Made by a program: the position numbers and the translations under genes
IMG/VR virus record: IMGVR_UViG_3300037067_018253
Source of the DNA: a virus
DNA length: 64,000 nucleotides
Reading direction: 5' to 3' (one strand)
Notes under the pieces: model-generated
Databases searched by the model: none
What the model saw: the letters and a program-made list of their open reading frames with translations, nothing else
Told to the model about the DNA's origin: nothing
Part shown: positions 36,697 through 58,488 of the stretch, piece by piece
How the letters are laid out: every line of letters begins with the position of its first letter
How positions within the stretch are numbered: position 1 is the first letter of the stretch

Positions 36697-37335
36697 TCAA
36701 AATATTAATGGAGGTGGAGGTGGAAGTACCACCCTTGGCCTTGCCCTGATAGTAGCGTTGCCATCACCAAGCAGGACTATGTGCGCCGCATCAAATTCAA
36801 GGCAAGCCCGAGATAACTCAAAATCACTGTTCGCCGCATTTTTAAGTAATCCGTTCTTTTGAATTAAATAGCTTTCATAAATAGTTCTGCCGTCAAGCAG
36901 GTTATTTAATCCGTCCACTATTGGCTGTAGCGCTTCTCTGGTATATTTATCGTTCCACGGGTCTGGCCAGTTATCGCTGCAAACGATCCAATTTAAATCG
37001 TCATCGAATCCAATGACTGCCTTAGCACCTTGCTTTACTAATTCAGGGCCAAGTTCTTTGCCACAGTTACAGCTTATTAATTCGATAACCTTATCATTCA
37101 CCTGGTTGCGGTCTATGCCGCCAACTTTCCAAATTCCCTTTAATTCATCCGGGTCGCCATGGCCAGTTGCAACTATCAAGTCTGATTGTGGTGCGGTAAA
37201 ACCAAACATGAATTTTCTTGCCATAGGACCATAAAGCTGAAATGGCTCTACACGCGCACCTATCCCGCGTAAGACCATTCCAGAGCTAAAGTGGCTCGGT
37301 ATATCCGTTGAGGGGAGCAGGAGAGTACAGGTCAC
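36697..37335 (-). CDS. possible caspase-like (His-Gly / Cys dyad) peptidase
   Basis: ATGHGDPDELKG and ISCNCGKEL resemble caspase/CHAT HG and xSCxG blocks. Confidence 0.3.
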   Translation of the reverse strand: MTCTLLLPSTDIPSHFSSGMVLRGIGARVEPFQLYGPMARKFMFGFTAPQSDLIVATGHGDPDELKGIWKVGGIDRNQVNDKVIELISCNCGKELGPELVKQGAKAVIGFDDDLNWIVCSDNWPDPWNDKYTREALQPIVDGLNNLLDGRTIYESYLIQKNGLLKNAANSDFELSRACLEFDAAHIVLLGDGNATIRARPRVVLPPPPPLIF

Positions 37336-37571
37336 TACTTTCCGCTTACCATCTTTTTGATGCGGTCAAACACACTGGGGTTCTTAACCATCTCGTTGCC
37401 GAGGTTGCCCAGGTTTACTGCGGTAACGCCATTGGCCTGCATAGTCACCAGATGGTTATTGTTAGCTCTATTACTATTAATATACTCCTGTACGGCCCTC
37501 GATGCCTCCGCTTTTTCAGCAGACGTATTCGCTGTTGTAACCATTCTCCTTACTTCATCCCATGTATACAT
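37335..37571 (-). CDS. hypothetical small protein
   Basis: ORF. Confidence 0.35.
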   Translation of the reverse strand: MYTWDEVRRMVTTANTSAEKAEASRAVQEYINSNRANNNHLVTMQANGVTAVNLGNLGNEMVKNPSVFDRIKKMVSGK

Positions 37572-37583
37572 ATCGGCCTCCTT

Positions 37584-39389: not shown

Positions 39390-39402
39390 TATTCATCCCT
39401 CC

Positions 39403-40446: not shown

Positions 40447-40455
40447 TTAAACCTC

Positions 40456-41250
40456 CTATTTTATCCACGGCCATTTTATATGAAGGAAATTTGGCAGTGG
40501 GGGTCCATTCCATGGCAGCATGGGCAACCACATGGAAAGAAGCGATGAGCCGCTTTCCAGAACAGGTGGTGTCGCCGCCTTTTCTCTAATTGTATTACTG
40601 TTCCAGTCATATACATAGATCTTATCGGTTTCAAGTTCCAGGAATGGAACCTGCCTGATTTCTTTTTGAATACTCCCATCTTCATCCATGCGGAAATTAA
40701 GGTACTGGTAGGTCTTTAGATTCCATATGGAAACAGGCTGGTCTACTGCCGCATCACCACTAGTATAATTACCGGTCACGAATCCATTTACCCACCAGTG
40801 GACAGTTCCAGCCGGCGGATTTTCCAAGTAGATAGTAGTGCGCGGCACCTCAACCGGAGGTGGTGGTGTAACTATCACTGCTGATGGTGTAACGGTTACA
40901 ATAGTACCATCACCACTAAGCGCAACGTCGAATGTATCATCAACAGTATTGATTATAAATGGTTGCGAATAGTAGTAATCATCCACCGGCAGGGGCTTTA
41001 TACCGGTGAAATCCAGCCATCTTATTCCTAATACCACCGGTCTATTCAAAAAGTCATTTATGTTAATCCAGTCTGGTGGGCTCGTATTCCACGTATATCC
41101 CTCTGCGGGGTAGCTAACTACGGATGGCCCAAATGCACTAGGCGATGATGCTGGATTAACTATCTGCAACGTGATACCCATAGCACTTGGTGTTCTGTTT
41201 AGAATCGGGCTTATGGGATTACCTGTCAGTAAGAATGTAGGCATTATCAT
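40456..41250 (-). CDS. structural protein with C-terminal PPW-GPPLP-WPWIK motif
   Basis: C-terminus LPMLPWNGPPLPNFLHIKWPWIK. Confidence 0.45.
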   Translation of the reverse strand: MIMPTFLLTGNPISPILNRTPSAMGITLQIVNPASSPSAFGPSVVSYPAEGYTWNTSPPDWININDFLNRPVVLGIRWLDFTGIKPLPVDDYYYSQPFIINTVDDTFDVALSGDGTIVTVTPSAVIVTPPPPVEVPRTTIYLENPPAGTVHWWVNGFVTGNYTSGDAAVDQPVSIWNLKTYQYLNFRMDEDGSIQKEIRQVPFLELETDKIYVYDWNSNTIREKAATPPVLESGSSLLSMWLPMLPWNGPPLPNFLHIKWPWIK

Positions 41251-41258
41251 GGCCTCCC

Positions 41259-41498
41259 CTAGATTATTTTTCTTCCGGTAAGTACCTCAAACTCACGGCG
41301 AAGTTCCTCGGTAAACCCGCGCTTCCTGATTGTCACCCATGGGGGCTCTTCCTGAATACGTCTGACTGCGCGGGTAAAGAAACCAGGCCATGAAATATCC
41401 CACGAATCCGGCAACGGGGGTCCTTTGGATGGTGAGGTCGGTTTTAGAAGTATCTCTGCAATTTGCAGTACAGTCGCCTGTTTATTTGTTACTGGCAT
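41259..41498 (-). CDS. small protein with GPPLP...W.WPG motif
   Basis: SKGPPLPDSWDISWPGFF. Confidence 0.35.
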   Translation of the reverse strand: MPVTNKQATVLQIAEILLKPTSPSKGPPLPDSWDISWPGFFTRAVRRIQEEPPWVTIRKRGFTEELRREFEVLTGRKII

Positions 41499-41826
41499 TA
41501 CTTTCCCCCTTGACCGCTTTTGCCACTACATTTGGTACCGGGGGCAACCACTTATTTACCAGTGCAGGGGCAAGAATGTCGTTCACCTTATCTCTTAATT
41601 GAGGAAGTCCGTCTATATTGGGAACAGGGGGAGCCATAACCTTAATGACCCCCGCAAACTTACTCTCGAAAGTACCGGGGCCATGTATAATAGCGGCACT
41701 TCTCTTTATGGCCTCTATTCCCTGACTAATGGGGTTGTCTGTTAGAATATTAAACATAACAACTACACCTCCCCTTATAGAGAAGTGTAGTTGAAAAATG
41801 GCAAAAATGTCAATAGTTTGATGCAT
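41482..41826 (-). CDS. hypothetical protein
   Basis: ORF. Confidence 0.3.
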   Translation of the reverse strand: MHQTIDIFAIFQLHFSIRGGVVVMFNILTDNPISQGIEAIKRSAAIIHGPGTFESKFAGVIKVMAPPVPNIDGLPQLRDKVNDILAPALVNKWLPPVPNVVAKAVKGESNASNK

Positions 41827-41838
41827 GAGGGTGCAAGA

Positions 41839-42063
41839 TTAGATTACAGGGGGCTCAAACATTCCAGCGAAGGGCATTTTAACGCGACCATGGCTAGGGC
41901 ACATTGCGTTAGGTTGATTAATAAGGCCAGATACGTTATCAAGTTCAATAGCCTCATCCGGTTCAACGGCTTCTCTGCAAATAGGACAAATAGCACGGAA
42001 CGTGTACTCCCCGTATCTCATTAATCTCAGCCGCAGTAATTTATTACCGAAATCTTTGGTCAC
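41839..42063 (-). CDS. Zn-ribbon protein
   Basis: CPICRE...CPSHG. Confidence 0.35.
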   Translation of the reverse strand: MTKDFGNKLLRLRLMRYGEYTFRAICPICREAVEPDEAIELDNVSGLINQPNAMCPSHGRVKMPFAGMFEPPVI

Positions 42064-42069
42064 TTTTTA

Positions 42070-42984
42070 TTATCCTTTTGGGTTAATTCCCAGTATTTCC
42101 CTGATTCTTTCCCTGATGTCATAGTCGTAAATACATCCATCAGTAAGATTACTGGGGAAATCTTGGCCTTGCAGATATGGCAAAAATGCACTAGCCAGCC
42201 GATTGAAGGCATATTCAGGTGGAGAAGGTGAATACTTGTCCTGCGTGCATTTAATGTTGAGCATGACCACTTGTCCAACCCACTCAGCGATCTGGTTCAT
42301 AGTTGGCGGAGATGGATTTGTAAGCCAGTACGTGCCTGGCTCTTTTATCCGCGCCATTGCATCCGTAACAGCCTCAACCTTGACGATATTAAGATGCCCG
42401 CATGGATTACCGTAAAGCCTGAAAGTAATCTCTAATGGTGGTAAATGTACCGCACCCTCGAATGCCCTGCGGATTAACTCTGCGCGCCGGTGTACCTTTA
42501 TTATTAAAGATATAAAGGTGGAAAAATGTTCTTCATTTGGACCAAACACAATCCCCGGCTTAAAAACGGTCACATTCGGAATGTCACTGTGGCTTACCAG
42601 CAGTTCGCAGACTGATTTTGATATTTCGTAGGTATTCATAGACTGGCAAAAGGCAGTGCTGCAATAATACAGGTGGGGTACTTTATGCTTTGCGCAGAAA
42701 TCTATGACGTTTTTAGTGCCTTCTACATTGGTACGCCATATTTCCCCGGATTTATCTTCTCCAAGGCGTAGAACTGCGGCCAGGTGGTATACTGCATCGA
42801 AATGTTTATCGTTCCATACCCTGCCGAAATCAGGCAATAGTATATCGCCGGAAACCTCTCCATTATCTGGATAAGCTGCACCATGATGTATGAGTTTTAC
42901 TACTTCGTTACCTTGTTTTACCAGCTTGGGTATCAGCGAACGTCCGATTGCCCCAGTACCACCGGTGACTAATATAGTTCCCAA
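42070..42984 (-). CDS. NAD-dependent epimerase/dehydratase (extended SDR)
   Basis: VTGGTGAIGRSL Rossmann motif; YxxxK at YEISK; probable TTG start. Confidence 0.7.
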   Translation of the reverse strand: MGTILVTGGTGAIGRSLIPKLVKQGNEVVKLIHHGAAYPDNGEVSGDILLPDFGRVWNDKHFDAVYHLAAVLRLGEDKSGEIWRTNVEGTKNVIDFCAKHKVPHLYYCSTAFCQSMNTYEISKSVCELLVSHSDIPNVTVFKPGIVFGPNEEHFSTFISLIIKVHRRAELIRRAFEGAVHLPPLEITFRLYGNPCGHLNIVKVEAVTDAMARIKEPGTYWLTNPSPPTMNQIAEWVGQVVMLNIKCTQDKYSPSPPEYAFNRLASAFLPYLQGQDFPSNLTDGCIYDYDIRERIREILGINPKG

Positions 42985-46253: not shown

Positions 46254-46575
46254 GGAATTATCCTCCTACTTCTGTTATATGCTATCATAAATAGAAAAAA
46301 GAGTCAATATGTGTTATCAATCCAATTATAAAAGGGCTTGTATTACTAAAATAGATATGCTATCATAGGGATAAAATAGAGTGACAAAGGCGGGCAAACA
46401 TGACACAGGACAATAATTCACAAAAGACAGAATTAACCGAAGAGCGTATCCGTGAAATAGTGCGGGAAGAAATAACCTTAGCCGCAGTAAGAAATATGGT
46501 AGAGCTCCTAGATGTGGATGTTCGGTTTGCCCATATCAAAGATAACCTTTTGCGTCATAAAAAGGTGGCGGATTA

Positions 46576-47436
46576 ATGACAACACGTAAGATATGCTCAT
46601 GGGCGCTCAAGGGGGGAGCTGGAAAAACATTTGTCGCCGCTAACCTCGGATATGCGCTTCAGCGAGTCGGACACAAAATTGGATTCACTGATGCAGATGT
46701 AACCGGACCAAAACTCCCCGGGTTTCTCGGTATGACAAGACCGTATCCATATCCAAAAGTGGATGTGGAGAAAGTCGAGAAGTACCCTGCGCTATGGAAT
46801 GGATTTGAAGTCTATAGTCTTGCGTTTGAGTTCGATGGCGCCGTGATGCTCAAGGGCGGCGAAGAAAAAATACGTGCGTTCGGTCATGAGTATGAAATCC
46901 ATGGTACAGGCATATATAATCTGGTAAAAAATACCCTTGAACACCTCAAGTATTCCGATGACCTGGATTATCTTATATACGACCTGCCTCCCTCGACCTC
47001 AGACAGTGTTCTGTCTCTCTTTGAAAATATCAAGGACCTTTACGGCGTTATATTGGTCTGCCAGCCGACCGGACAGGCCATTGATGATATGGAACGCGCC
47101 GTGGACCTGCTAATAAAAAGAAGGTTGCCTGTTATCGGCATGGTCGGCAATATGACACACGTATCCTGTCCGGCATGTAGCCATGAGTTCTACCCATTCG
47201 CTGAAAACTCTATCAACCTTATGCAGTTCTGTAAGGACAACGGAATACCGTATTTAATGGGTGTACCACTCACCCGCGATAAGTATGCTATCGATGTTCA
47301 ATTTGATCTGCTGGCTAAAATAGTGGATGTATCCAATCCAATTAAACTTAGTGATGTCCCCTTGCCAAAAAGACTGGGGCAAATGGTACTCAGGAAAGCC
47401 GTTGAATCAATGGTGAATAATACTGCGAATGAGTAA
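46576..47436 (+). CDS. Mrp/NBP35/ApbC-family Fe-S cluster carrier ATPase homolog
   Basis: KGGAGKT P-loop, LDYLIYDLPPSTSD, VILVCQPTGQAIDDM, CPACSHEF CxxC block; all collinear with Mrp/ApbC. Confidence 0.7.
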   Translation: MTTRKICSWALKGGAGKTFVAANLGYALQRVGHKIGFTDADVTGPKLPGFLGMTRPYPYPKVDVEKVEKYPALWNGFEVYSLAFEFDGAVMLKGGEEKIRAFGHEYEIHGTGIYNLVKNTLEHLKYSDDLDYLIYDLPPSTSDSVLSLFENIKDLYGVILVCQPTGQAIDDMERAVDLLIKRRLPVIGMVGNMTHVSCPACSHEFYPFAENSINLMQFCKDNGIPYLMGVPLTRDKYAIDVQFDLLAKIVDVSNPIKLSDVPLPKRLGQMVLRKAVESMVNNTANE

Positions 47437-48988
47437 CGAACCATTCTATCAAGATTCACAGTTCACGCAGTACGTGGGCGATGCCACGGAAGTGATAGAT
47501 AGCCTACCGGAACATTCCGTTGACAGTATTATGACGAGTCCGCCTTATTTCGGGCTGAGAGTTTACGATGCACCGGTAAGGATATTCGACAACCATAATA
47601 ATTGCGAACACGAGTGGGGAGAGAATATAATTACGGGCGATAATAGATTTAGGGGGGAACATTCTATTGACGGAAGGAACAAAAATCCCGAGGTTACCCT
47701 TCATGGGAAGTTTCGTTCTAAATTCTGTTCTAAATGTGGTGCTTGGCAAGGGGTGCTTGGCTCCGAAAGCCGTCCAGGTGATTATATCCATCACCTAGTA
47801 CAGATATTCGATTCATGTAAGCGTATACTAAAGCCTTCGGGAAGCCTTTGGGTAAACATTGCAGATACACGGTGGAATGCGAAGGGAAGTTGCTTTAACC
47901 CGGGTGGTGGTAATACATCCCTGCAAAACAACAAAAAGGAGGCCGGGGTCTTTCCTGTTCAGCGCGGAAATAAGTCCGATAATCCCAATATACCAGTAAA
48001 ATCCATGGTGGGGATACCGGAGAGATTCGCCATAGCGATGATAGACCGTGGTTGGATTTTACGTAATAAAATCATATGGCACAAGAATAACTGCCTACCA
48101 TCAAGTGCCCGGGACCGGTTCACCGATGATTACGAGTTGTTGTTTTTCTTTACCCTTAACGGCAAACCTCTTTATTGGATTAATGAAAAGACGATGCAGT
48201 GCGTAAATAAAAAGCCAGCCGGTATACACGGACAAGAAAATATCGACTGGAAATATATACCGTGCCCGAAATGCACTTCGTTTGAATCCCAGGTTAAAAC
48301 GGCTGATTGTAAGCGTTGTAATAGTACTGGTGTGGTAAGGGATAGTTTATGGGATAGCTATGATTATTACTTCGAGCAACAATTCGAGCCAATGAAGTAT
48401 CCTGAACGCCTCTTTAATCCAGATACCAGTGAACATAAAACTACTACATTAAAAGATGAGGGCAACCGAGTCACTGGCGGTTTGCATGATGGGCGAACAC
48501 AATACGGAAATCCGGCGCTGGGAAGAAATATGCGTACAGTTTGGACCATTAACACACGTGGTCTTGGCAAGGAATATAAACACTACGCAGCCTTTCCAGC
48601 AGAATTATGCACCACGCCAATTTTATCCACGATACCCGAGTTCATTTGCTCAAAGTGCGGGCTGCCCAAGACGAAGGTATACCAAAAGACCGGTGAGTTG
48701 ATCGGGGAAGATGGATATGGCTCTCGCACTGCGGAAGTACAAGGAGTGTCGGTAACAAGTTCATTATTAACAAAAAAGGTCATGGAGAAGGAGTTTTCCG
48801 GCTTATCCACTTGCTCATGCTCAGCATCGTTTGTACCCGGTGTAATCCTTGATCCGTTTGGTGGTACCGGGACAACTGCGCTGGAAGCCCGTAGATTGGG
48901 CAGAAGGGCTATATGTATAGACATTTCTGAGTCGTATGCTAAAATGGCGGTTAAGAGGGTTACTGGAATTCCTAACCCATTTGATTAA
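47429..48988 (+). CDS. beta-class DNA amino-methyltransferase (N6A/N4C) with Cys-rich Zn-ribbon insertions
   Basis: Motif IV SPPY (DSIMTSPPY) N-terminal, motif I DPFGGTGTT C-terminal; inserts CSKCGAWQG and CPKCTS...CKRCNSTG. Confidence 0.7.
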   Translation: MSNEPFYQDSQFTQYVGDATEVIDSLPEHSVDSIMTSPPYFGLRVYDAPVRIFDNHNNCEHEWGENIITGDNRFRGEHSIDGRNKNPEVTLHGKFRSKFCSKCGAWQGVLGSESRPGDYIHHLVQIFDSCKRILKPSGSLWVNIADTRWNAKGSCFNPGGGNTSLQNNKKEAGVFPVQRGNKSDNPNIPVKSMVGIPERFAIAMIDRGWILRNKIIWHKNNCLPSSARDRFTDDYELLFFFTLNGKPLYWINEKTMQCVNKKPAGIHGQENIDWKYIPCPKCTSFESQVKTADCKRCNSTGVVRDSLWDSYDYYFEQQFEPMKYPERLFNPDTSEHKTTTLKDEGNRVTGGLHDGRTQYGNPALGRNMRTVWTINTRGLGKEYKHYAAFPAELCTTPILSTIPEFICSKCGLPKTKVYQKTGELIGEDGYGSRTAEVQGVSVTSSLLTKKVMEKEFSGLSTCSCSASFVPGVILDPFGGTGTTALEARRLGRRAICIDISESYAKMAVKRVTGIPNPFD

Positions 48989-49604
48989 TCAACTATATAC
49001 AAAGGAAGGTAAGATGTCTCCTGATAATGACAATAAAGACAATTGGGCTGTAGTCGGCAAGGGCAGCACTGTTTATAAACTGCTTAACAAGTGCTTTGAT
49101 AGGCAGAAGGTGGTGGTAGACAGGTTGCCGGAAAAAGAACGCAAGAAGCTATATGGTTTCGCCTGCCAGTTCATTGTAAAAGGCAAGGAATCCGAAGGCG
49201 GAATATTTAACTTGTGGTTCTGTTCGGAGGGGATACAACCAAAGCCGCCGGACGCGCCACTGCGTAACTACGTTATCTTGTCCTATGATACCTTTCTAAA
49301 TCTATTTACGCCTGATTATGATAGTCTCAAGGCCATTACTCCTAATGGTGAAAGGCTGGCCGGCTTTGATGCGCTGTCATATTATATTGAGAACGGCATG
49401 TTTAAAGACATACTGCCTACTCTCAAGCCGGTACAAAGCTTCAATAATGCCATGGCCAATGGATCCATTGAGTTCGGGGGCGTTATGCCGGATATAGACA
49501 GTGCCAAATGGGGTGAAATGGTCAACGAGGTACTTTACGAGATAGCCTTCCCCATGGTTGTCGAGGGATTAATGGAAACAACGAAGTCAAAAAAGAAAAG
49601 GTAA
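48936..49604 (+). CDS. hypothetical protein
   Basis: ORF in tight operon. Confidence 0.45.
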   Translation: MLKWRLRGLLEFLTHLINQLYTKEGKMSPDNDNKDNWAVVGKGSTVYKLLNKCFDRQKVVVDRLPEKERKKLYGFACQFIVKGKESEGGIFNLWFCSEGIQPKPPDAPLRNYVILSYDTFLNLFTPDYDSLKAITPNGERLAGFDALSYYIENGMFKDILPTLKPVQSFNNAMANGSIEFGGVMPDIDSAKWGEMVNEVLYEIAFPMVVEGLMETTKSKKKR

Positions 49605-49606
49605 TA

Positions 49607-50032
49607 ATGGGCGACGGCGGGTGGAAGATTGTATCTAGTAAGGATTTTACGCCTGAATTTCTTGAGCGTAATCCTGAACTGGCTGGTGTAGTTGGTAAGA
49701 TTACCCACCGGAAGTATCGTAATGAGCCGGCTATTTCATTTGACCGTGTATTTGAATCTACCCTGGAAGCTGAACGGGCGGGAGAGTTGATGATACTCCT
49801 GAAAGAAGGTAAGATATTTAACCTGTACTTTCAAGTGCCGTTTGTACTGCAAGGCGGGGTGAAATACGTGGCTGATTTCGTGTATCTCGATGATAAACTT
49901 GATTGTGTGGTTGAGGATACCAAGGGAGTATGGACCCGGTCATCTAAAGATAAGGTAAAGCAATTCGAGGCTGCGTATAGGAAAAAGGTAAATGTAATCA
50001 AGAGAGAAAAATTTAATGCAATTAACACTTGA
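49607..50032 (+). CDS. PD-(D/E)xK-type nuclease-like protein (DUF1064/VRR-NUC-like)
   Basis: ADFVYLDD...VVEDTKG (D...E-x-K). Confidence 0.4.
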   Translation: MGDGGWKIVSSKDFTPEFLERNPELAGVVGKITHRKYRNEPAISFDRVFESTLEAERAGELMILLKEGKIFNLYFQVPFVLQGGVKYVADFVYLDDKLDCVVEDTKGVWTRSSKDKVKQFEAAYRKKVNVIKREKFNAINT

Positions 50033-50765
50033 TAATAAAACAATAGACCAACTTGCAATTGAATTAATACAATCTGTGGTTGGCAACAAAACAGCTTATG
50101 TGACCTTATCCGGTGGGAAGGATAGCATCGTCGAGGTTGATTTAGTTAGACGTTCTGGAGTACCCCATGAGTTGCATTATCACCGAACTGGCCTGGACGC
50201 TCCCGAAACAATAAGATTCATCAAGTTGGTTTACCCGGATTGTATTTGGGACATTCCTGACCGAACATTCTGGGAAGGTATGCTTTCCAACGGATTACCT
50301 CGGCGGTTGCAACGATGGTGTTGCGGGGAATTGAAAGAATGTTTTGGCCGAGGCCAAAACAATATTATCATTGACGGCATTAGAGCGGGAGAATCTAATA
50401 GCCGTGAGGCTCGTAATTGCTTCGAGGCGTGTGATGAGGATGAGGGAACTACTTTTCTTCATCCTATTTTCAGGTGGTCTGTAGATGATGTTTGGCAGTA
50501 CATTGACGAACGCAAACTGCCACATAACCCTCTTTACTATTCAGGGGGAAAACGGGTTAAGAAACGTAGAATTGGCTGTATCTTATGCCCGATGGTGTCT
50601 AAGTTTGAAGCGGAAAGACAAATGGGAATGTTCCCTGGCTTCGTCAAATTGTATTTAGACTATTCTGAGCGATATGTACAAATTCGCCGAGACCGAGGTA
50701 CTCCGCTTACTCAACAAACGGGGCGTGAATATTTTGATTGGTGGATTAATGACCATGACAGCTAA
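50016..50765 (+). CDS. PAPS reductase-family PP-loop ATP pyrophosphatase (DndC/SspD/CysH-like)
   Basis: PP-loop SGGKDS, CCGELKE, GIRAGES, CILCP; all hallmarks of PF01507. Confidence 0.7.
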   Translation: MQLTLDNKTIDQLAIELIQSVVGNKTAYVTLSGGKDSIVEVDLVRRSGVPHELHYHRTGLDAPETIRFIKLVYPDCIWDIPDRTFWEGMLSNGLPRRLQRWCCGELKECFGRGQNNIIIDGIRAGESNSREARNCFEACDEDEGTTFLHPIFRWSVDDVWQYIDERKLPHNPLYYSGGKRVKKRRIGCILCPMVSKFEAERQMGMFPGFVKLYLDYSERYVQIRRDRGTPLTQQTGREYFDWWINDHDS

Positions 50766-50800
50766 ATTTATAATCAAGAGAGATAGGAGGTAAAAATAAC

Positions 50801-51166
50801 ATGGTAATGCACAGGATCGAAAAACTCGCGGGACTGCCTAGTTTTGACGAGGTAAGGCAGACTACGCAAGCAGTGAACAGCCTAATGACTGCGCTCAATG
50901 ACAAGAGGCTTAACTCGCTACGCCAGCTCACCGATAACCTGCTTAAACTACAGGAACAGGGCGGACCACAAGGTATGCAGAGCTTCATACAGATTCTCAA
51001 TGTCCTGGCAAATGTGCCGGAGACCAAATTCGACAAGATAGACAGTACACTGAGAGACGTGATGGGGATTATTAATTCCCTGCAACGCCTGGTCAAGTCC
51101 CTGCCGGAAGGCATGCTGAGTGGGCTATCTCTTAGTAATCTGATGGACGAAATTAAAAAGCAATAG
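50801..51166 (+). CDS. hypothetical protein
   Basis: ORF. Confidence 0.4.
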   Translation: MVMHRIEKLAGLPSFDEVRQTTQAVNSLMTALNDKRLNSLRQLTDNLLKLQEQGGPQGMQSFIQILNVLANVPETKFDKIDSTLRDVMGIINSLQRLVKSLPEGMLSGLSLSNLMDEIKKQ

Positions 51167-51176
51167 GAGGATTTAC

Positions 51177-51539
51177 ATGTCAGAAAAACCTGCCAACCAG
51201 AATAAAAACCAGATTCAGGATATCTCCGATGTGAAAGAGTGCCCGATATGCCACAGTACGGATACCGTGTATAGAAAAGCTAATGAGTTTGCTATCAAGG
51301 CCGGCAAGGCGCCTTTATACATCGAGGCGGCCCTGATACCACTGGACCAGCCCGGCATGGCGGTGTTAGTCAATCACACCTTGATAAAATACTTCGATGA
51401 CTGTGCCCAGTGCGGTATACGCTATTGCGTTCATTCCCAGGTAATTACCACTGCAATCGGCGGAAGCGCACAGCAGGCTATGGCGCAGATGCTCGGTAAA
51501 TCCAATGGGCCCATGGGTCCGCAGCAGTTGAAGGGGTAG
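51177..51539 (+). CDS. Zn-ribbon protein
   Basis: CPICHS...CAQCG. Confidence 0.4.
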   Translation: MSEKPANQNKNQIQDISDVKECPICHSTDTVYRKANEFAIKAGKAPLYIEAALIPLDQPGMAVLVNHTLIKYFDDCAQCGIRYCVHSQVITTAIGGSAQQAMAQMLGKSNGPMGPQQLKG

Positions 51540-51540
51540 A

Positions 51541-51753
51541 GTGCCCAATAAACCTGATTACCACGTCGTAGCGGCTATATCCGCTGAGATAATTGGCCAG
51601 CCCATGCGTGAGGATGCGCAACGGGCGCTGGCTGCATCAATATGCCGCGGACAGTGCGGTCAGGAACCATGCAGCCCTCTTTGTAATGTGATGGTGCATG
51701 ATATAAACGAGGTATTGAGGGTAAAATGGGCACAGTACGCAATGTTGAATTAA
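51541..51753 (+). CDS. small Cys-containing protein
   Basis: CRGQCGQEPCSPLC. Confidence 0.35.
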   Translation: MPNKPDYHVVAAISAEIIGQPMREDAQRALAASICRGQCGQEPCSPLCNVMVHDINEVLRVKWAQYAMLN

Positions 51754-51821
51754 GGTGTTCGCCGCCGAAGTCCAGAAGCGACTTGAAATAAGCAGGAAGT
51801 AATTAAGGAAAGGAGAAGATA

Positions 51822-52634
51822 GTGAACAGCATGAAATGGATTGGATTAGGAATTGGAATTATACTACTTATCATCACGCTTGTTGGTGGAACTGTAATAA
51901 CTCCAGCAGGACACGTTAATGTAGTATTGAGGTTCGGTAGGGCAATAGGGGTAAAAACCGATGGGCTGTCCTTCAGAATGCCTCTCATCGACAATCTACA
52001 GTTAATGAGTATTCAGACGCAATTATTCGAGGTAGAAAATGCAGAGGCGGCATCAAGGGATATGCAGGACGTTGCTGCCTCTATAGCTATCAACTATAAG
52101 ATAGAGCCTCAATACGCAAGCGATATTTACCGAACCTTGGGAACAGACTACATCAAAAAGATTGCATACCCAGTAGTTCAAGAGGTAGTAAAATCTGTAA
52201 CCGCCAACTACGATGCGCAAGATTTAATACTCAGACGTGAGGACGTAAAAAATGTAATATCGACAGAATTGGGTAGGCGACTGGGAGAACGGCACATAAT
52301 AACGGAAACAATCAATATAACCAATTTTAACTTTAGCGAAGAATTTACTAAATCTATTGAGGCAAAAATGGTAGCGGCACAGAAAGTTATAGAAGCAGAA
52401 AATACACTGCGCCGTATAGAAGTCGAGGCACGACAGGCAGAGCAAAAAGCTAAAGGTGAAGCAGCCGCCGCAATAGCCAGAGCCGAAGGACAATCAGAGG
52501 CTAATAGAATATTGGCTGATAGCCTTACTCCTGAATTGCTACAATATACTTTCATCGATAAGGTTGCCGATCAAGATGTTGACAAGATACTAGTAATACC
52601 TTACGGTTCGCCCATTACATTACCGGCAAACTAA
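51822..52634 (+). CDS. SPFH/Band-7 (HflK/C, prohibitin-like) membrane protein
   Basis: N-terminal TM; SPFH core followed by coiled-coil RIEVEARQAEQKAKGEAAAAIARAEGQSEA. Confidence 0.6.
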   Translation: MNSMKWIGLGIGIILLIITLVGGTVITPAGHVNVVLRFGRAIGVKTDGLSFRMPLIDNLQLMSIQTQLFEVENAEAASRDMQDVAASIAINYKIEPQYASDIYRTLGTDYIKKIAYPVVQEVVKSVTANYDAQDLILRREDVKNVISTELGRRLGERHIITETINITNFNFSEEFTKSIEAKMVAAQKVIEAENTLRRIEVEARQAEQKAKGEAAAAIARAEGQSEANRILADSLTPELLQYTFIDKVADQDVDKILVIPYGSPITLPAN

Positions 52635-52690
52635 AGGAAAGGAGGCAGCAGAAACAGTCCTGAGTAGAGTGGAAATAATGCTTAGTCCAA

Positions 52691-52860
52691 GGCAGAGGGA
52701 TTTTACCCTCCGCCTGATTCGGGGAAGCAAGATGTAGCCTTACCAAGTGTCACACCGACAAAAGAAACGGTCACAGCTTGGAACGCAGAGGAATGAAGGG
52801 TTAGCCCACCCAATGGAGTTTCCCTGAGTCAGATAGAGGGCAAAAGAATGAGAGAGAAAG
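52691..52860 (+). promoter_or_regulatory. structured 5' leader of cassette A (paralog of 60757..60982)
   Basis: Conserved 5' hairpin ggcagagggattttaccctccgcc, conserved 3' end cagatagaggg...agagagaaaATG; the long-range helix differs from copy B but pairing is retained. Confidence 0.4.
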
Positions 52861-53151
52861 ATGAACCATAAGATTGCCAGAGCAGAAGCACTACGCCTAT
52901 CTAAAGAAACAATGGTTAAGGCAGAGCAGGAACGCAAACAACCCGCAATCTCTCACTGGCAAGACAAGCCTGATAAAGTTGGATACTGGTGGCTATTCAA
53001 TGAACGTAAAAATGTTGTATTAGTTATTCATAATATTAATAATCATGGTTTCGAAGTTTTGAATAACATGGGTCTTTTTCCTGTAGAAAATTATGGTGCC
53101 AAGTGGCTTTACATCGAGCAACCAGAAGCTCCAGAAGTAGGAGGGAAATAA
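52861..53151 (+). CDS. cassette A gene 1: hypothetical protein with conserved C-terminal domain
   Basis: Shares HWQDKPDK.GYWW...KWLYIEQPEAPE.GG with 60983..61498. Confidence 0.5.
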   Translation: MNHKIARAEALRLSKETMVKAEQERKQPAISHWQDKPDKVGYWWLFNERKNVVLVIHNINNHGFEVLNNMGLFPVENYGAKWLYIEQPEAPEVGGK

Positions 53152-53417
53152 TGCCTAAAGTATGGAACAAAAGAGATAAAAATACTCCTGTTGATGTTGT
53201 CTATGTAGGCAGACCTAGTAAATGGGGAAATCCTTTTAAGATAGGCAAAGACGGAAACAGAACTGAGGTTATTAACAAATACAGAATGAGAGTTATTAAT
53301 ATTCTCCAATTTACAGATAGTCATTGGCTTGATGAACTTAAAAATAAAGATTTAGTTTGTTGGTGCGTTCCTGCACCTTGCCATGCTGATGTACTGTTAG
53401 AACTTGCTAACAGATAA
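53151..53417 (+). CDS. cassette A gene 2: DUF4326-like protein
   Basis: VVYVGRPSKWGNPF...CWCVPAPCHADVL; the track ORF (53103) is extended by the conserved upstream sequence; probable start is ATG 53151 after ggagggaaata. Confidence 0.5.
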   Translation: MPKVWNKRDKNTPVDVVYVGRPSKWGNPFKIGKDGNRTEVINKYRMRVINILQFTDSHWLDELKNKDLVCWCVPAPCHADVLLELANR

Positions 53418-53645
53418 CCTTGCCATGTGGAAGTGGCAAGCCTGTACCAGCCACCCGAAAGAGCTAGGCTAACCAGTTGGTGTCACCGAGGATTGAGTAG
53501 GGTAGTCCAAGCTGAGTAGTATGACTTGCGACGGCTACTGGCTGGTACAGGAATCAAGACTCAAGGTGCTGGTGTCATAAAGGTAGACCTGAGATAGACG
53601 CAAGCGTGGTTTGAAAAGTGAACCAGCCAGCACCTGGGTGAATAA
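53418..53645 (+). ncRNA. conserved structured element A (paralog of 62017..62235); unclassified
   Basis: Conserved hairpin cttgcca-tgtggaag-tggcaag; 12-bp helix cctgtaccagcc/ggctggtacagg with compensatory change in copy B; conserved aatcaagRctcaaggtgctggt and ccagccagcacc. Confidence 0.4.
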
Positions 53646-53658: not shown

Positions 53659-54087
53659 ATGGATACTACAGAATTATATATAACAATGTGTGAAAAGTCC
53701 CCAGAGATTCAGGGACTTCGCCCAAGGGATGACAACGAATTTATACCTGACTGTTATTTTGGATTGTTTATCTTTGAACGAACCAAGAAACGAGAGAACT
53801 TTCATCTATTTTGTGTTTCAGATGATAGAGTAGTACAGGAACAGTCTATTTGGCTCCCCAGGCAAGACGAGCTTCAGAAGATGATGAAATATTTAAAGTT
53901 AAATCTTCATCTTGAGTATGCTGTTGATTCTGTATGGCTGCTTTATAATGAAACTAGGCAGAATTTTAGGAATGAATACTATGAAAGTTTTCGATCAATG
54001 GAGCAACTCTGGCTTGCCTTTGTTATGAGAAAAAAGTATCACCAAGTATGGGATAATGATAAAAAAGACTGGTTTGAAGAAAAATGA
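53659..54087 (+). CDS. hypothetical protein
   Basis: RBS aaggagacaaaATG; the track ORF begins earlier at 53611. Confidence 0.45.
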   Translation: MDTTELYITMCEKSPEIQGLRPRDDNEFIPDCYFGLFIFERTKKRENFHLFCVSDDRVVQEQSIWLPRQDELQKMMKYLKLNLHLEYAVDSVWLLYNETRQNFRNEYYESFRSMEQLWLAFVMRKKYHQVWDNDKKDWFEEK

Positions 54088-54398
54088 AACTTATAGACAA
54101 AGTAGCAAATTTAGTATGCTGTGATTGCCCTGAAGGGAAAAAGCTCATCAAAAACTGGAGATGTATTCTTGGTTTTAATCCAGTTTTATCAGAGAAGCAT
54201 TGTACTCAGTGTGAAGCTGAAATGAAGAAATATCGCGAGAAAATAAAATGTAGATATTTTAATAGGATATTATCTCAGAAAGAAATTAAAGAGATGTATA
54301 ATGTTGAAAAATACATAATGAGAGAAGAAGATTGCCTGATAATGAAAAGGGGATCGCCGTCAATCATTATCCGGGGCGGTAATATGGAGGTTAAATGA
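54084..54398 (+). CDS. Cys-rich small protein
   Basis: CCDCPEG...CTQCE. Confidence 0.4.
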   Translation: MKLIDKVANLVCCDCPEGKKLIKNWRCILGFNPVLSEKHCTQCEAEMKKYREKIKCRYFNRILSQKEIKEMYNVEKYIMREEDCLIMKRGSPSIIIRGGNMEVK

Positions 54399-55078
54399 GC
54401 GAGTTAATGAGAGAAATACCGTACCTGTTATTAGTGGCCGGTGGCAGCCTGATTGGACTCTGGTGGGCAAACTACTTCTTCGACCACGGTATCAGCCATT
54501 GGAGAAGTCGTAAGGTTGCCCATGCTTTTGGCGGCGGGGCTAGTCTGTTAGCGGCTTTACTATTTGAGTCGTGGGTATTACCAGTGGCGCTTGCCACTAT
54601 GTTCGCACTGATATTGGGCATAGCAAACAGGCTTGCTCCAAAAACCTTCCGTGGTACCGGTGGCTCTGGGCGTAATACCCGGGCGATGTCTGAATTTTGG
54701 TTTGGTTTCTCTACTGCCTTAATCTGGGGTATCGGCTGGGGAGTATTTAATCGCCCCATTGAATCTACCGCCTGCATCCTTATGATGTCGTGGGGAGATG
54801 CTGTAGGGGGATGGGTTCGCGCTTTCCGCTATAATACAGCCACGAAGGGGTGGGAAGGCAGCATGGTTAATCTCTGTGTTTGCATGGTATTGGCGTGGGC
54901 ATTTCTATCACCTTTATGGCTGGGCGTTCTCGCCGCGGTTGGCGCTGCGGCCGCTGAATATGCGTGTGGAGATGTTAGCAAGATAAGGTTCCTGAGGTGG
55001 GCGGATGATAACTTGTTTATACCGGTAGTGGCAGCTTTAATTTACTTCGGTGGACTTTATGCGATAGGGGCACTGTAA
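54395..55078 (+). CDS. CTP-dependent polyprenol (dolichol/phytol) kinase / CdsA-like integral membrane protein
   Basis: Multi-TM; WGDAVGGWVRAFRYNTATKGWEGS matches the G-D-x-x-G...K-G-x-EGS signature of the DolK/DUF92 family. Confidence 0.45.
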   Translation: MSELMREIPYLLLVAGGSLIGLWWANYFFDHGISHWRSRKVAHAFGGGASLLAALLFESWVLPVALATMFALILGIANRLAPKTFRGTGGSGRNTRAMSEFWFGFSTALIWGIGWGVFNRPIESTACILMMSWGDAVGGWVRAFRYNTATKGWEGSMVNLCVCMVLAWAFLSPLWLGVLAAVGAAAAEYACGDVSKIRFLRWADDNLFIPVVAALIYFGGLYAIGAL

Positions 55079-56382
55079 TGCTCAATCCCTGTTATAGTGA
55101 TAATACCTCTGCCTTCTATGAAATGGACTGCCTAGATGGCCTAAAAGATATCCCTGATAATTCTATAGACCTTCTTTGTACGGACCCGCCATATGGACTC
55201 GCATTCATGGGATTAAAATGGGACAAGGCTGTTCCACCAGTAGATACATGGAAACAGTGCCTGCGTGTCCTTAAGCCCGGGGCATTTGGGTTTATAATGT
55301 GCATACCGCGCCAAGATTGTTTATCCCGGATGATTGTTAATCTGCAAGACGCTGGATTTGAAACGGGCTTTACGTCAATGTACCACACCTTTGCCCAAGG
55401 CTTTCCGAAGGCAGAGAATATATCGAAATCCATAGACCGTAAACTCGGGGTACAACGCACTGTGGTAGGCAAGAAAATGGTTGATATTGGTATCCAAAAG
55501 GGTTCTATGCACGCTGGACAGGATACTAATGTGGTTGAGGTTGATGATACCATAGCCACGTCTCCGCAGGCTAAGGCTTTAGACGGGAGCTATACTTATA
55601 ACCCTAAGCCAGCTATTGAAGTCATTTTGGTGGTGATGAAACCGCTTGAAAGGAAAACCTACGTAGAGCAAGCCATGGATAACCAGAAGGGTGTTGTTTG
55701 GTTTGATGATTGCAGGATACCGGTGGACCCGGACGTAGACGATCATCGGCTAGGCGGTAAAGGCACGTGGTCAACTGGAAAGATGTGCAAGAACACCTAT
55801 GAGGGCGGGTATGCAGGGGAAAGAGTTGGCTCATCGCCAGCAGGCAGGTTTACGGCTAATCTACTCGTTTCTAACGATATTCTTAATAATGGCATAGAGT
55901 GGAAATCTGGTAGTAATGTGACCGGGATAGAACCGTCAGTACCAACCAAGAATGTTTACGGTGAATACGAAAGACGTAGTTTCGTTTCCTATGGTGACAC
56001 CGGTTCATTTAGCCGCTTCTTCAGTCTGGATGCATGGTGGAGTAATAAGATAAAAAACTTACCGGAATCAGTACAAAAAACCTTTCCATTCTTTCTGGTG
56101 GCCAAGGCATCTGCAGGCGAGAGGAATAATGGTATTGAGCCAGGCTGTGAAAATCATCATCCATCAGTTAAACCCTTAACTCTTATGAGCTATCTTGTAA
56201 CATTAGGCAGCCGCCCCGGTGACACCATCCTTGAGCCATTCCTTGGTTCCGGTACTACTGCAATCGCATGTAAAATATTAAACCGGAAGTGCATTGCGTT
56301 TGAAATCAGCCACGAATATATTCAAATCGCTATATCCCGTCAGAATCTGATACAGACAAAATTATCAATACCCGCCGTCTAA
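55078..56382 (+). CDS. beta-class DNA amino-methyltransferase (N6A/N4C)
   Basis: Motif IV DPPY (LLCTDPPYGLAF); motif I EPFLGSGTTAIAC; last 7 codons and stop lie inside the IS left end. Confidence 0.7.
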   Translation: MLNPCYSDNTSAFYEMDCLDGLKDIPDNSIDLLCTDPPYGLAFMGLKWDKAVPPVDTWKQCLRVLKPGAFGFIMCIPRQDCLSRMIVNLQDAGFETGFTSMYHTFAQGFPKAENISKSIDRKLGVQRTVVGKKMVDIGIQKGSMHAGQDTNVVEVDDTIATSPQAKALDGSYTYNPKPAIEVILVVMKPLERKTYVEQAMDNQKGVVWFDDCRIPVDPDVDDHRLGGKGTWSTGKMCKNTYEGGYAGERVGSSPAGRFTANLLVSNDILNNGIEWKSGSNVTGIEPSVPTKNVYGEYERRSFVSYGDTGSFSRFFSLDAWWSNKIKNLPESVQKTFPFFLVAKASAGERNNGIEPGCENHHPSVKPLTLMSYLVTLGSRPGDTILEPFLGSGTTAIACKILNRKCIAFEISHEYIQIAISRQNLIQTKLSIPAV

Positions 56383-57597
56383 AACCCCGTATTTCAATAC
56401 TGGGGATACAGACGGCAAAACCCTTTTGGGATTTCTTTTCTATTTCGTTTGTGCTATAATGTAAATAATGCATAAAACTACTTTCCAGTATCGCATATAC
56501 CCGACCAAAAAGCAATTGGCGTTACTGCAAGGCACTCTTAACGAGTGTCGCTGGCTTTACAATCACTTTCTTGAAGAGCGCAAGAATTCCTGGGAACAGA
56601 AACAGGAATCCATTACAATGTACGACCAGATTAAAACATTGCCATCCCTTAAAAAGGATAATGCTTCTTTGGGTATGGTTCATAGCCAGGTACTGCAAGA
56701 TGTGGCAGTACGTATTGATCTGGCGTTTAAGGCTTTCTTCAGGCGTGTCAAGGCCGGAGATAAGCCCGGTTACCCGAGGTTTCGCGGTACCGGCTGGTAT
56801 GATAGTTTCACGTATCCACAAAGTGGCTATTCTATTAGCATGGATACGATCACACTGTCTAAGATTGGAGTAATTAAAGCCGTTATCCACCGACCCATCG
56901 AGGGTAAGATGAAAACCTGTATTGTAAGGCGCACGTCTACCGGTAAATGGTTCGTATCTTTCTCTTGTGAAGTGGAAGATAAACCGCTTCCAGAATCCAA
57001 CGAGGCTGTTGGCATCGATGTTGGATTGGAGTCTTTCGCTACTCTTTCCACCGGGGAATCTATCGCCAATCCACGCTTCTTTAGAACTGATGAAAAGGCG
57101 CTGGCCAAAGCACAAAAGAAAATGTCTAAATACGACAAAGGCACACCTGAGAGACGGAAAGCTCGTAAGGTAGTATCGCATATACATGAGCGAGTTGCCA
57201 ATAGACGTTCTAACTTTGCTCACCAGCTTAGTCGTAGAATCGTAAATAGCTATGGAGTTATCTGTGTAGAAGATATCCAAACCAACCGGATGCTTCATAA
57301 TCATTGTTTGGCTAAATCCATTTCGGATGCAGCTTGGGGTATGTTCTTCGCCTGCCTCGCGTACAAAGCTGAAAATGCTGGTCGCAGGTATAACGCTGGC
57401 AACCCCGCCTACACTACTCAGGATTGCTCCGGGTGCGGACACAGACAGAAGATGGAACTCTCTGAAAGAGTCTATCATTGTCCTTGTTGTCAGCTTACAT
57501 TGCCTCGCGACCATAATGCCTCACTTAATATTCTGGCTATCGGGCTGGATAGCCTGGGTCTTGTCCCTAGAAGCCCTAGTCATAGGGAACAGTCACT
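56360..57597 (+). mobile_element. IS200/IS605-family TnpB-only element (IS1341-like), about 1.24 kb
   Basis: LE with hairpin ccccgtatttcaatactgggg; tnpB; RE with terminal hairpin ccctagtcataggg; LE and RE homologs elsewhere in the window define the ends. Confidence 0.7.
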
Positions 57598-57601
57598 ATG
57601 A
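56468..57601 (+). CDS. tnpB: TnpB (IS605 OrfB) RuvC-like RNA-guided nuclease-family transposase accessory protein
   Basis: N-terminal YRIYPTKKQLALLQ; RuvC-like core; C-terminal Zn-ribbon CSGCGHRQK...CPCCQ. Confidence 0.8.
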   Translation: MHKTTFQYRIYPTKKQLALLQGTLNECRWLYNHFLEERKNSWEQKQESITMYDQIKTLPSLKKDNASLGMVHSQVLQDVAVRIDLAFKAFFRRVKAGDKPGYPRFRGTGWYDSFTYPQSGYSISMDTITLSKIGVIKAVIHRPIEGKMKTCIVRRTSTGKWFVSFSCEVEDKPLPESNEAVGIDVGLESFATLSTGESIANPRFFRTDEKALAKAQKKMSKYDKGTPERRKARKVVSHIHERVANRRSNFAHQLSRRIVNSYGVICVEDIQTNRMLHNHCLAKSISDAAWGMFFACLAYKAENAGRRYNAGNPAYTTQDCSGCGHRQKMELSERVYHCPCCQLTLPRDHNASLNILAIGLDSLGLVPRSPSHREQSL

Positions 57602-58488
57602 ACATCGGCTTGCTTAACCTGGAACCGAAATACAAAAACTTCGCCCTTGAAAAATTGCGCATCTATCATCAGTCTAAGGGTGATTACGCAGAAGATTACT
57701 TCGCCTTGAATCATTACGACAAGGTGTATGTTTCCAGTATATTTACATTCACCGGCAAGTCAATAGTGCCACAGGGGGCTGTGTGTGGTGGATCCGGCTT
57801 CGATTTGACCACTGTTTTGCCACCGGAAGTAGAAGATATACAGCCACATCTTAATTTTGGATTTACCACGCGCGGATGTCCCAATAATTGCCCATTTTGC
57901 ATCGTGAGGCGTAAAGAAGGGGATATTAAGATTGTATCTCGCCTGAAGGATTTATGGAACGGTGTGAAGGGTGCACTGATTACTCTTTATGATAACAATG
58001 TACTGGCGGTAATGGAGCACTTTCAAGAGGTTTGCCGTGATTCGGTAGAGTACCATGTCAAGCTGGATTTTAACCAGGGACTGGACCACCGGAAACTTAC
58101 ACCGGAGATAGTCGGGGTGATGAAGTCCATTAGCCACGTCGAGTATCGTTTCGCATTCGATAGCCCTGCCTATTACAATTCGGTAGAACGTGCCCTTAAA
58201 TTACTTCAAGATGGAGGTATTAACCGCAGCCTTTGGTATGTTTTGGTCGGATTTAACACCACATTTCAAGAGGATTTAGACCGGGTTAATTTCCTCCGGA
58301 GCCGCGGACAACAAGCCTATATCCAAAGATATCAACACCATGCCAACGATTACAAATACATTGCCCTGGCGCAATGGGTTAACCAGCACAATATCTTCTA
58401 TGGCATGACGTGGGAACAATTCCTTGCCACAGACCACAGTAGGAGAAGGGGATATGCTAAATTAGTCCTTGACAATACAGTGCAATAG
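57598..58488 (+). CDS. radical SAM-like protein
   Basis: CxxxCxxC at GCPNNCPFC; start codon abuts the IS right end. Confidence 0.45.
   Translation: MNIGLLNLEPKYKNFALEKLRIYHQSKGDYAEDYFALNHYDKVYVSSIFTFTGKSIVPQGAVCGGSGFDLTTVLPPEVEDIQPHLNFGFTTRGCPNNCPFCIVRRKEGDIKIVSRLKDLWNGVKGALITLYDNNVLAVMEHFQEVCRDSVEYHVKLDFNQGLDHRKLTPEIVGVMKSISHVEYRFAFDSPAYYNSVERALKLLQDGGINRSLWYVLVGFNTTFQEDLDRVNFLRSRGQQAYIQRYQHHANDYKYIALAQWVNQHNIFYGMTWEQFLATDHSRRRGYAKLVLDNTVQ

Follow-up and report, generated by a model that had tools for sequence, protein, structure and literature searches.

Stand-alone homologs of 3'-phosphoadenosine-5'-phosphosulfate (PAPS) reductase are well known on phages, archaeal viruses and plasmids, where they are uncharacterised (PMC11437467; 10.1101/2021.07.29.453957). 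They sit in aca-regulated and variable phage regions (PMC13551039), and a PAPS-Dam fusion of Vibrio crassostreae phages overcomes Dnd (10.1101/2021.05.05.442762). A gene of this kind (g5) lies in a packed run of open reading frames (ORFs) at 46400-51753 of IMG/VR virus record IMGVR_UViG_3300037067_018253 (the window, here the whole analysed stretch of 64,000 nt), which comes from a ~69-kb uncultivated virus-like mobile element of anaerobic landfill and digester metagenomes. The run also encodes an Mrp/NBP35-like ATPase (g1), a beta-class DNA methyltransferase (g2), a protein of SCP2 (sterol-carrier-protein-2) fold (g3) and a nuclease-like protein (g4). An initial annotation had suggested that these genes may form an undescribed DNA-modification or self-protection pathway coupling g1 to g5. 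We conclude, with a probability of roughly 0.6, that the run is a mosaic and not one modification pathway, and that it consists of a conserved, probably lipid-related backbone into which separately mobile cargo genes were inserted.

Tracing g1 homologs (35-48% identity) led to five related elements (L012, L013/L014, L015, L098 and L099), in whose syntenic loci the Mrp-like protein is 35-46% identical to g1. These loci were compared by tblastn with all window ORFs; the relatives were visible within 10 kb of the anchor gene. They share a collinear order that runs from the Mrp-like gene through g3, a small ORF, a membrane protein and a UbiA-like protein to, in some, a polyketide synthase (PKS), and then to a short-chain dehydrogenase/reductase (SDR). 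The g3 homolog lies directly 3' of the Mrp-like gene or one to two ORFs further on in 5/5 relatives, and a homolog of the 227-aa membrane protein is found downstream in all five as well. UbiA-like and SDR genes follow in L013, L015, L098 and L099, and L012 stops at a contig edge. The type III PKS-like gene occurs in the window, L013 and L015. Homologs of g6 were detected in L012 and L013, with an ORF of similar size at the equivalent position in L015, L098 and L099. None of g2, g4, g5, g7, g8 and the SPFH gene (g9) was found in any of the five relatives within the 10 kb, nor were the families PF01555, PF06356 and PF01507. The backbone genes are almost contiguous in L015, L098 and L099. In the window they are split by at least four extra blocks, namely g2, g4 with g5, g7 through the ORF at 54084-54398, and the second methylase with TnpB, radical-SAM and other genes.

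The same pattern emerges from the side of g5. Its homologs at 49-68% identity (L001-L004, L008) and at about 30-36% (L009-L011) lie in unrelated neighbourhoods, and no PF10609 gene was found near any of them. An alignment-based scan of IMG/VR yielded 80 PAPS-like and 64 Mrp/ParA-like loci, with flanks of up to 10 kb on either side. Identities span 27-38% over L009-L011, 20 phage records and the 80 PAPS-like loci, whose contexts are likewise unrelated. An Mrp-like gene was present in none of the 80 and, in the reverse test, a g5 relative in none of the 64. Given these counts and the five relatives, the eight genes are not a co-inherited unit. At the nucleotide level, the region matched none of 50,697 phage records.

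These results bear on the proposal of an integrated pathway, in which the Mrp-like ATPase would load an iron-sulfur (Fe-S) cluster onto g5, which would then modify DNA, with sulfur or otherwise, alongside the methylase and the nuclease. The genes are tightly spaced, the CPxC of g1 aligns with the cluster-bridging motif of Archaeoglobus fulgidus Mrp, g5 combines a PP-loop with CC...CxxC and has BrxP as its best match in a defence library, and hardly any known phage has an Mrp-like gene; all of this would suit such a pathway. However, backbone relatives do without methylase, nuclease and PAPS-like gene within the 10 kb covered, co-inheritance is missing from both sets of loci, and the constant partner of g1 is an SCP2-fold protein rather than a DNA enzyme. 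Both g1 cysteines are missing from 8 of the 25 clade members, although these retain the gene context, no desulfurase, DndD/SspC ATPase or DndE/SspB was found in the operon, and g5 scores far under the DndC and SspD cut-offs. We therefore regard the integrated pathway as quite unlikely; the gene packing by itself was misleading on this point.

Judged by its sequence, g1 truly belongs to the Mrp/NBP35 family at the Pfam level, with a match to PF10609 (Mrp/NUBPL-type ATPase) at 2.5e-39 and 135.6 bits versus a gathering score of 27.1, and it falls in a separate clade confined to related uncultivated elements. It carries a deviant Walker A motif (KGGAGKT) and an Mrp-type DLPPSTSD motif; K12, G13, G14, G16, K17, D136, P138 and P139 are invariant across the clade, whose proteins include P0025-P0048. 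Among solved structures, g1 comes closest to A. fulgidus Mrp (2ph1/3kb1, 8e-20) and to 8zkc, an iron-sulfur cluster carrier protein. With the Mrp/NBP35/ApbC carriers (2PH1/3KB1; Escherichia coli ApbC/Mrp 8ZKC) g1 shares PF10609, the deviant Walker A and a DxPPxTxD-like motif, and its own C198-P-A-C201 aligns with the CPxC carrier motif (CPNC in 2ph1). The clade as a whole differs from these carriers. The CxxC is kept in 17/25 proteins and is replaced by A-P-[KQE]-S (APKS, APQS, APES) in 8/25; most members end in an amphipathic ...KGxVKGLFxK tail, a putative counterpart of the MinD membrane-targeting helix that is less clear in the g1 of the window; and an SCP2-fold neighbour is constant. The g1 scores lie below the equivalog cut-offs of ApbC (76 versus 348) and MrpORP (115.1 versus 450). 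The remark that an Fe-S carrier ATPase is unusual on a phage was borne out, as the 50,697 phage records held one weak match, a 28%-identical fragment. PLSDB contained just housekeeping copies on megaplasmids (~26-31% identity), and the best IMG/VR match in the alignment-based scan is 35% identical.

The CxxC also bears on whether g1 is a general Fe-S maturation factor, serving g5, the radical-SAM protein and a DUF5131 protein encoded at 16032-16811 (-). The motif is present in the g1 of the window, and a putative Fe-S enzyme, radical SAM or DUF5131, is encoded at least once in the window and in each relative. The members without CxxC, however, include those of L015 (P0031), L098 (P0048) and L099 (P0045), which retain full synteny and hold the same position; L015 still has its DUF5131 gene. 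The genes that constantly accompany g1 encode SCP2-fold, membrane and UbiA-like proteins, and g1 is far below the two equivalog cut-offs, so that we consider a maturation role unlikely.

Among window proteins classed as other putative Fe-S enzymes, the DUF5131 protein is of the Gp37/Gp68 type, and the radical-SAM gene is on the plus strand. DUF5131 was also seen in L012 and L015, and a radical-SAM gene in L013.

The constant downstream partner of the Mrp-like gene, g3, is modelled as an SCP2 lipid-carrier fold with a long C-terminal helix. Its family is tiny. An exhaustive search of 1.84 billion representatives was needed to recover 16 relatives; a word-indexed search found only g3 itself. A g3 profile matched no PDB sequence, and fold search alone was informative. 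Unlike SCP2-domain carriers such as UbiJ of the ubiquinone-synthesis complex, g3 has no sequence-level family membership, carries the extra helix and adjoins an Mrp-like ATPase on a mobile element; its lipid role is putative. The 326-aa protein further downstream is assigned to the UbiA superfamily through its L099 homolog, which has PF01040 (2/5 family members match, best 2.9e-10). The 227-aa membrane protein matched no Pfam family; we presumed a likeness to polyprenol or phytol kinases and dropped it for want of Pfam support. From these predicted folds and domains, with the UbiA-like, PKS and SDR genes, the backbone probably is lipid- or membrane-related rather than DNA-related.

The SDR gene of the window belongs to a block with genes for a 601-aa and a 212-aa protein, which is upstream and on the minus strand (36697-42984); in L013, L015 and L098 it is downstream and on the same strand. 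The opposite placement indicates an inversion or a different genome permutation.

A reading of g1 and g3 as the ParA-type partition cassette of an episome, with a pair of 28-nt repeats upstream of the run as its centromere, would draw on the ParA/MinD superfamily fold of g1, on its place near a divergent intergenic region with direct repeats, and on a match to phrog_164 ('ParA-like partition protein', 2.6e-15). We hold it to be very unlikely, since g1 is of the Mrp/NBP35 type (135.6 bits for PF10609 versus 34.8 for CbiA, and 29.8 for ParA_partition versus a cut-off of 180), the g3 fold is SCP2 and not a DNA-binding ParB or RHH fold, and just two repeat copies are present. A further possibility, which we put forward tentatively, is that the backbone is a mobile-element module that makes or traffics a lipid, such as a prenylated phenolic or quinone-like compound, with the Mrp-derived ATPase repurposed as a membrane-associated partner of the lipid carrier. 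Its components would be the ATPase with its MinD-like tail, the SCP2-fold carrier, a small protein, the membrane protein and the UbiA-type, PKS-like and SDR proteins. Close counterparts of the backbone were not found when g1 and the UbiA-like protein were searched against the phage records, or g1 and g3 against PLSDB. The Mrp-like/SCP2-fold/UbiA/PKS backbone is the newer feature of the locus, and g2 and g4 are ordinary. If the backbone does make or move a lipid, it would equip a bacterial or archaeal mobile element with an unusual function and add a new role to the Mrp family.

Of the cargo genes, g5 is a new member of the widespread, uncharacterised family of virus-borne stand-alone proteins represented by PHROG 424. 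It matches PF01507 (PAPS_reduct) at 4.9e-22 and phrog_424 at 6.8e-31. In 24 homologs, S32, G34, D36 and S37 of the PP-loop SGGKDS are invariant, G33 and K35 are kept in at least 90%, and the cysteines C102, C103, C188 and C191 (CC...CxxC) are invariant. The AlphaFold2 model (pLDDT 90.6) retrieved the reductases 2goy (3.1e-10, TM 0.55-0.61), 2oq2 (5e-9) and 1sur (2.6e-7) with Foldseek. In BFVD it matched A0A8S5N1G6, a 'PAPS reductase' of a gut siphovirus, almost end to end (E 7.6e-21, TM 0.84-0.85). Its best matches are the uncharacterised archaeal 'hypothetical protein' models PRK13795, PRK08557 and PRK08576 (1e-24 to 1e-21) and the PAPS-reductase part of BrxP.

The database label (jgi name, phrog_424 category) suggests an auxiliary metabolic gene, a true PAPS or adenosine-5'-phosphosulfate (APS) reductase that would boost assimilatory sulfate reduction of the host. 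APS and PAPS reductases are indeed the closest solved folds, and g5 has the CC...CxxC of the APS-reductase type, which in assimilatory APS reductases ligates a [4Fe-4S] cluster. Sulfonucleotide reductases, however, carry a C-terminal catalytic Cys in an ECG[LI]H motif. The last Cys of g5 is C191, and 0/24 homologs have a Cys in the C-terminal 55 residues, so the catalytic residue is missing. The PP-loop is the canonical SGGKDS versus a degenerate SxG in CysH, and the viral genes sit in replication or early regions beside methylases. In hidden Markov model (HMM) searches, g5 stayed far below the cut-offs of the CysH models PRK02090 (43 versus 154) and TIGR00434 (36.5 versus 165.1), of TIGR02055 for APS reductase (34.8 versus 235.3), of TIGR02057 (30.2 versus 254.2) and of the CysD models (25-36 versus 195-397). 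The initial annotation relied on g5 being neither CysH nor CysD, which these scores support, and we consider a metabolic role highly improbable. Against the APS reductases of Pseudomonas aeruginosa (2GOY) and Mycobacterium tuberculosis (7LHS), g5 thus shares fold and cysteine motif type and differs in the catalytic Cys, the PP-loop and its score under the TIGR02055 cut-off.

We favour instead a function for g5 like that of a PP-loop/Fe-S enzyme of the DndC, SspD, BrxP and TtuA kind, as its motifs suggest. With DndC, SspD and BrxP it shares the PAPS-reductase fold and the PP-loop SGGxDS. The initial annotation had likewise placed g5 in the broad family that includes DndC and SspD. Membership in the phosphorothioation families themselves was not supported: g5 scored 20.8 versus 290.4 for DndC (TIGR03183), and the PADLOC matches to DndC (1.5e-5) and SspD (1.2e-3) are both partial. 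As had been remarked, no cysteine desulfurase and no DndD-like partner is encoded among g0-g9; desulfurase, DndD/SspC and DndE/SspB were looked for with Pfam, NCBIfam and PADLOC. The BrxP match (4.5e-22) places g5 residues 6-222 on positions 114-344 of a 779-position model, and the DUF4007 and C-terminal domains of BrxP, a protein of type 4 BREX, are missing from g5. No BREX genes (BrxC, PglZ, BrxL) were detected by PADLOC on g0-g9 or by Pfam and PHROGs on the other scanned ORFs of the window. Residue-level equivalence of the g5 cysteines to APS-reductase ligands was not confirmed by sequence search; the alignments end before the cysteine motif, so that a predicted Fe-S cluster in g5 rests on motif type and fold.

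Relatives of g5 at 27-36% identity were found in 20 phage records, among them Bacteroides and Clostridium phages, Methanosarcina virus MetMV, an Altiarchaeum virus and Sulfolobus SMV2, and the two signature motifs of the family occur in at least 581 IMG/VR stretches. A single-protein scan of IMG/VR with g5 confirmed none; the alignment-based scan succeeded. In 30 dereplicated IMG/VR loci, with two ORFs counted per side, the commonest identifiable neighbours of the PAPS-like gene are DNA methylases (8/118 flanking ORFs: five N6_N4, two C5 and one Dam). A methylase lies 0.9 kb downstream of the PAPS-like gene in MetMV (AZF89934.1), and NatCom_17901 has the order methylase-PAPS-methylase. Such proteins agree with g5 in fold, length, an early or variable genome region and a frequent place beside DNA methylases. 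The Vibrio PAPS-Dam protein differs in being fused to its methylase; g5 is a separate gene, and the role of its subfamily is a putative one. The claim that the combination had not been described is not supported for its PAPS-like part, as stand-alone viral genes of this type, often beside methylases, are known and one is anti-Dnd (10.1101/2021.05.05.442762; PMC11437467; PMC13551039). The family merits attention: it is widespread, has an invariant PP-loop and four-cysteine motif, is not CysH, and has one relative with a tested role.

Two side observations concern PAPS-like loci elsewhere. Lar_restr_allev proteins occur twice among the immediate neighbours in IMG/VR loci L164-L243 (best 1.1e-11). 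The L004 region 13235-19188, with a PAPS-like gene 49% identical to g5, encodes glycosyltransferases, STT3/AglB-type oligosaccharyltransferase domains, a Prim-Pol and an SPFH protein, and may belong to an archaeal virus with a protein-glycosylation cassette.

The remaining cargo is likewise familiar. Genes like g2, g4 and the PAPS-like gene are known from many viruses, and here the three are independent cargo. The product of g2 matches PF01555 (2.1e-32, 113.3 versus a cut-off of 26.7) and PADLOC MTase_II (1.4e-56). Its motif IV (SPPY, residue 37) precedes motif I (FGGTG, residue 477), which is the beta-class order, and SPPY is more typical of N4-cytosine methyltransferases in this family. As in orphan phage N6_N4 (beta) methyltransferases, PF01555 and the order of motifs IV and I come with no restriction enzyme nearby; g2 differs from them in an unusually long insert of about 430 aa between the motifs, with four CxxC pairs (at 100, 279, 294 and 407). 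The g4 product matches PF06356 (DUF1064, PD-(D/E)xK-like; 1.4e-8, 35.6 versus a cut-off of 24.7) and phrog_190 ('Holliday junction resolvase', 1.9e-16), and nuclease activity is predicted. The Pfam and PHROG matches bear out the domain calls of the initial annotation for g1, g2, g4 and g5. A restriction-modification system of g2 and g4 was considered and rejected, because a backbone gene lies between them and DUF1064 is a family of replication or recombination type.

Other genes of anti-restriction or cargo character were noted. The g7 product resembles the Lar restriction-alleviation Zn-ribbon at a score below threshold (E 0.0064), and a 597-aa protein with an ArdC N-terminal domain, another anti-restriction-type gene, is encoded at 4413-6206 (+). 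A second cargo block at 55078-58488 (+) comprises the DPPY methylase, an IS605-family TnpB and the radical-SAM protein (phrog_9298), with an ATGA overlap.

Taken as a mosaic, the locus would open a long plus-strand unit, probably co-transcribed, and would have two layers, backbone and cargo, with no evident functional link between them. The unit may be read as one transcript from a promoter in the divergent intergenic region upstream of g0. The g1 and g3 products would act on a lipid with the downstream membrane, UbiA, PKS and SDR proteins, and cargo would have entered at four or more points between backbone genes. Among the cargo, g2 would shield the element from host restriction by methylating its DNA, probably at N4-cytosine; g4 would be a recombination or replication nuclease; and g7 and g8 would be two small Zn-ribbon-type ORFs. 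We propose that g5 is an ATP pyrophosphatase dependent on an Fe-S cluster, that the substrate it adenylates is a nucleic acid or a nucleotide, and that, independently of g1, it serves DNA modification or counter-defence, like the Vibrio anti-Dnd PAPS-Dam. The tight spacing would then reflect the ordinary compaction of a mobile-element operon and not a dedicated pathway.

Several points weigh against this mosaic view. The g1 of the window is among the members with a CxxC, and g5 is probably dependent on an Fe-S cluster; missing co-inheritance is compatible with an opportunistic link between g1 and g5 in this one genome. The lipid module is drawn from fold and domain assignments and from synteny among related collinear genomes, which shared ancestry alone may explain. 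Co-transcription of the unit is presumed, and Fe-S binding by g5 is predicted from its motif. Finally, methylases also occur in at least 2/118 distal control ORFs, five to eight genes away (one-sided Fisher p = 0.05); as this control count is a lower bound, their enrichment beside PAPS-like genes is suggestive and marginal.

The coordinates of the run and of the downstream unit are collected in Table 1. Nine plus-strand ORFs are packed with overlaps or gaps of at most 35 nt: -1 (TAATG) at g0/g1, -8 at g1/g2, +25 at g2/g3, +2 at g3/g4, -17 at g4/g5, +35 at g5/g6, +10 at g6/g7 and +1 nt at g7/g8. GGAGG-type ribosome-binding sites precede most starts, and the g3 start is most likely 49014 rather than 48936. 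The packing and junctions described for a tight eight-gene operon were thus recovered, whereas its bounds shift: g0 opens the unit at 46400, and the same-strand run extends far past 51753, through SPFH, DUF4326, membrane-protein, second methylase, TnpB, radical-SAM and further genes. No homologs of g8 were found, and it is uncalled in public annotations of the identical contig; this ORF being doubtful, the gene count of eight may be seven. Pfam, PHROGs, NCBIfam and PADLOC scans gave no significant family match for g0, g3, g6, g7 and g8. No terminator-like sites were found on the plus strand within 46400-53400, and promoter-like matches in the run region are no commoner than in shuffles. Three independently assembled copies of this element (L005-L007) show the same arrangement. 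Backbone and cargo genes show a weak trend only in G+C content at third codon positions.

Table 1. Coordinates of the gene run, its flanking region and the other backbone and cargo genes of the window.
Feature	Position	Strand	Layer	Basis or remark
Divergent intergenic region between minus-strand block and plus-strand unit	46254..46399	.		Carries 28-nt repeats
g0, 58 aa, opens plus-strand unit	46400..46576	+		No family match; TAA stop overlaps g1 ATG
g1, Mrp/NBP35-like P-loop ATPase, 286 aa	46576..47436	+	Backbone	PF10609, PDB match, synteny, clade alignment
g2, beta-class N4/N6 DNA methyltransferase, 519 aa	47429..48988	+	Cargo	PF01555, PADLOC MTase_II, motifs
g3, SCP2 fold (modelled) with long C-terminal helix, 196 aa	49014..49604	+	Backbone	
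g4, DUF1064 small nuclease-like protein, 141 aa	49607..50032	+	Cargo	PF06356, phrog_190
g5, PAPS-reductase-fold PP-loop protein, 249 aa	50016..50765	+	Cargo	PF01507, phrog_424, AlphaFold2, Foldseek, BFVD
g6, 121 aa, function unassigned	50801..51166	+	Backbone	Homologs in L012, L013; similar-size ORF in L015, L098, L099
g7, 120 aa, two CxxC pairs (Zn-ribbon-like)	51177..51539	+	Cargo	Sub-threshold matches only
g8, 70-aa Cys-rich ORF, GTG start, doubtful gene	51541..51753	+		No homologs; absent from public annotations
g9, SPFH/Band-7 membrane protein	51822..52634	+	Cargo	PF01145 9.4e-25; beyond the range of the initial annotation
Multi-pass membrane protein, 227 aa	54395..55078	+	Backbone	Kept in 5/5 relatives; no Pfam family
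Second DNA methyltransferase (DPPY type)	55078..56382	+	Cargo	
TnpB	56468-57601	+	Cargo	
Radical-SAM protein	57598-58488	+	Cargo	
UbiA-superfamily prenyltransferase-like membrane protein, 326 aa	59418..60398	+	Backbone	Homologous to L099 protein with PF01040
Type III PKS-like gene	63469 to window end (64000)	+	Backbone	
SDR epimerase/NAD_binding_4 protein	42070-42984	-	Backbone	

Upstream of g0, a 28-nt imperfect direct repeat (ATATGCTATCATA...) occurs at 46277-46304 and 46355-46382 (82% identity, 78-nt spacing), possibly as part of an operator or promoter. The otherwise compact unit is interrupted by two intergenic gaps of unusual length, at 52635-52860 (226 nt) and 53418-53610 (193 nt); neither has an Rfam match.

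The element is only putatively a phage and may be a virus or a plasmid. In about 30 ORFs, searches of Pfam, PHROGs and PDB sequences identified no terminase, portal or capsid protein, and the whole window has no tRNAs and no Rfam match. A tyrosine integrase (14104-15063), RepO (18499-19401), a DnaC/IstB-like protein (17595-18506) and a clamp-loader-like ATPase (467-1150) are encoded in the window. The nearest relatives of TnpB are ambiguous as to the host, coming from metagenome-assembled genomes of Anaerolineae (60%) and from Methanotrichaceae (53-60%; Methanothrix, Methanocrinis). L013 carries a sigma-70 gene, and bacterial-type primase, RepO and DnaC-like genes are found in the window or its relatives; these genes favour a bacterial host, a methanogen neighbour being the alternative. 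Elsewhere in the window, a minus-strand tandem array at 23222-29199 holds at least six paralogs of about 230 aa with 23-44% pairwise identity, and further ORFs of roughly this length extend as far as about 33.7 kb.

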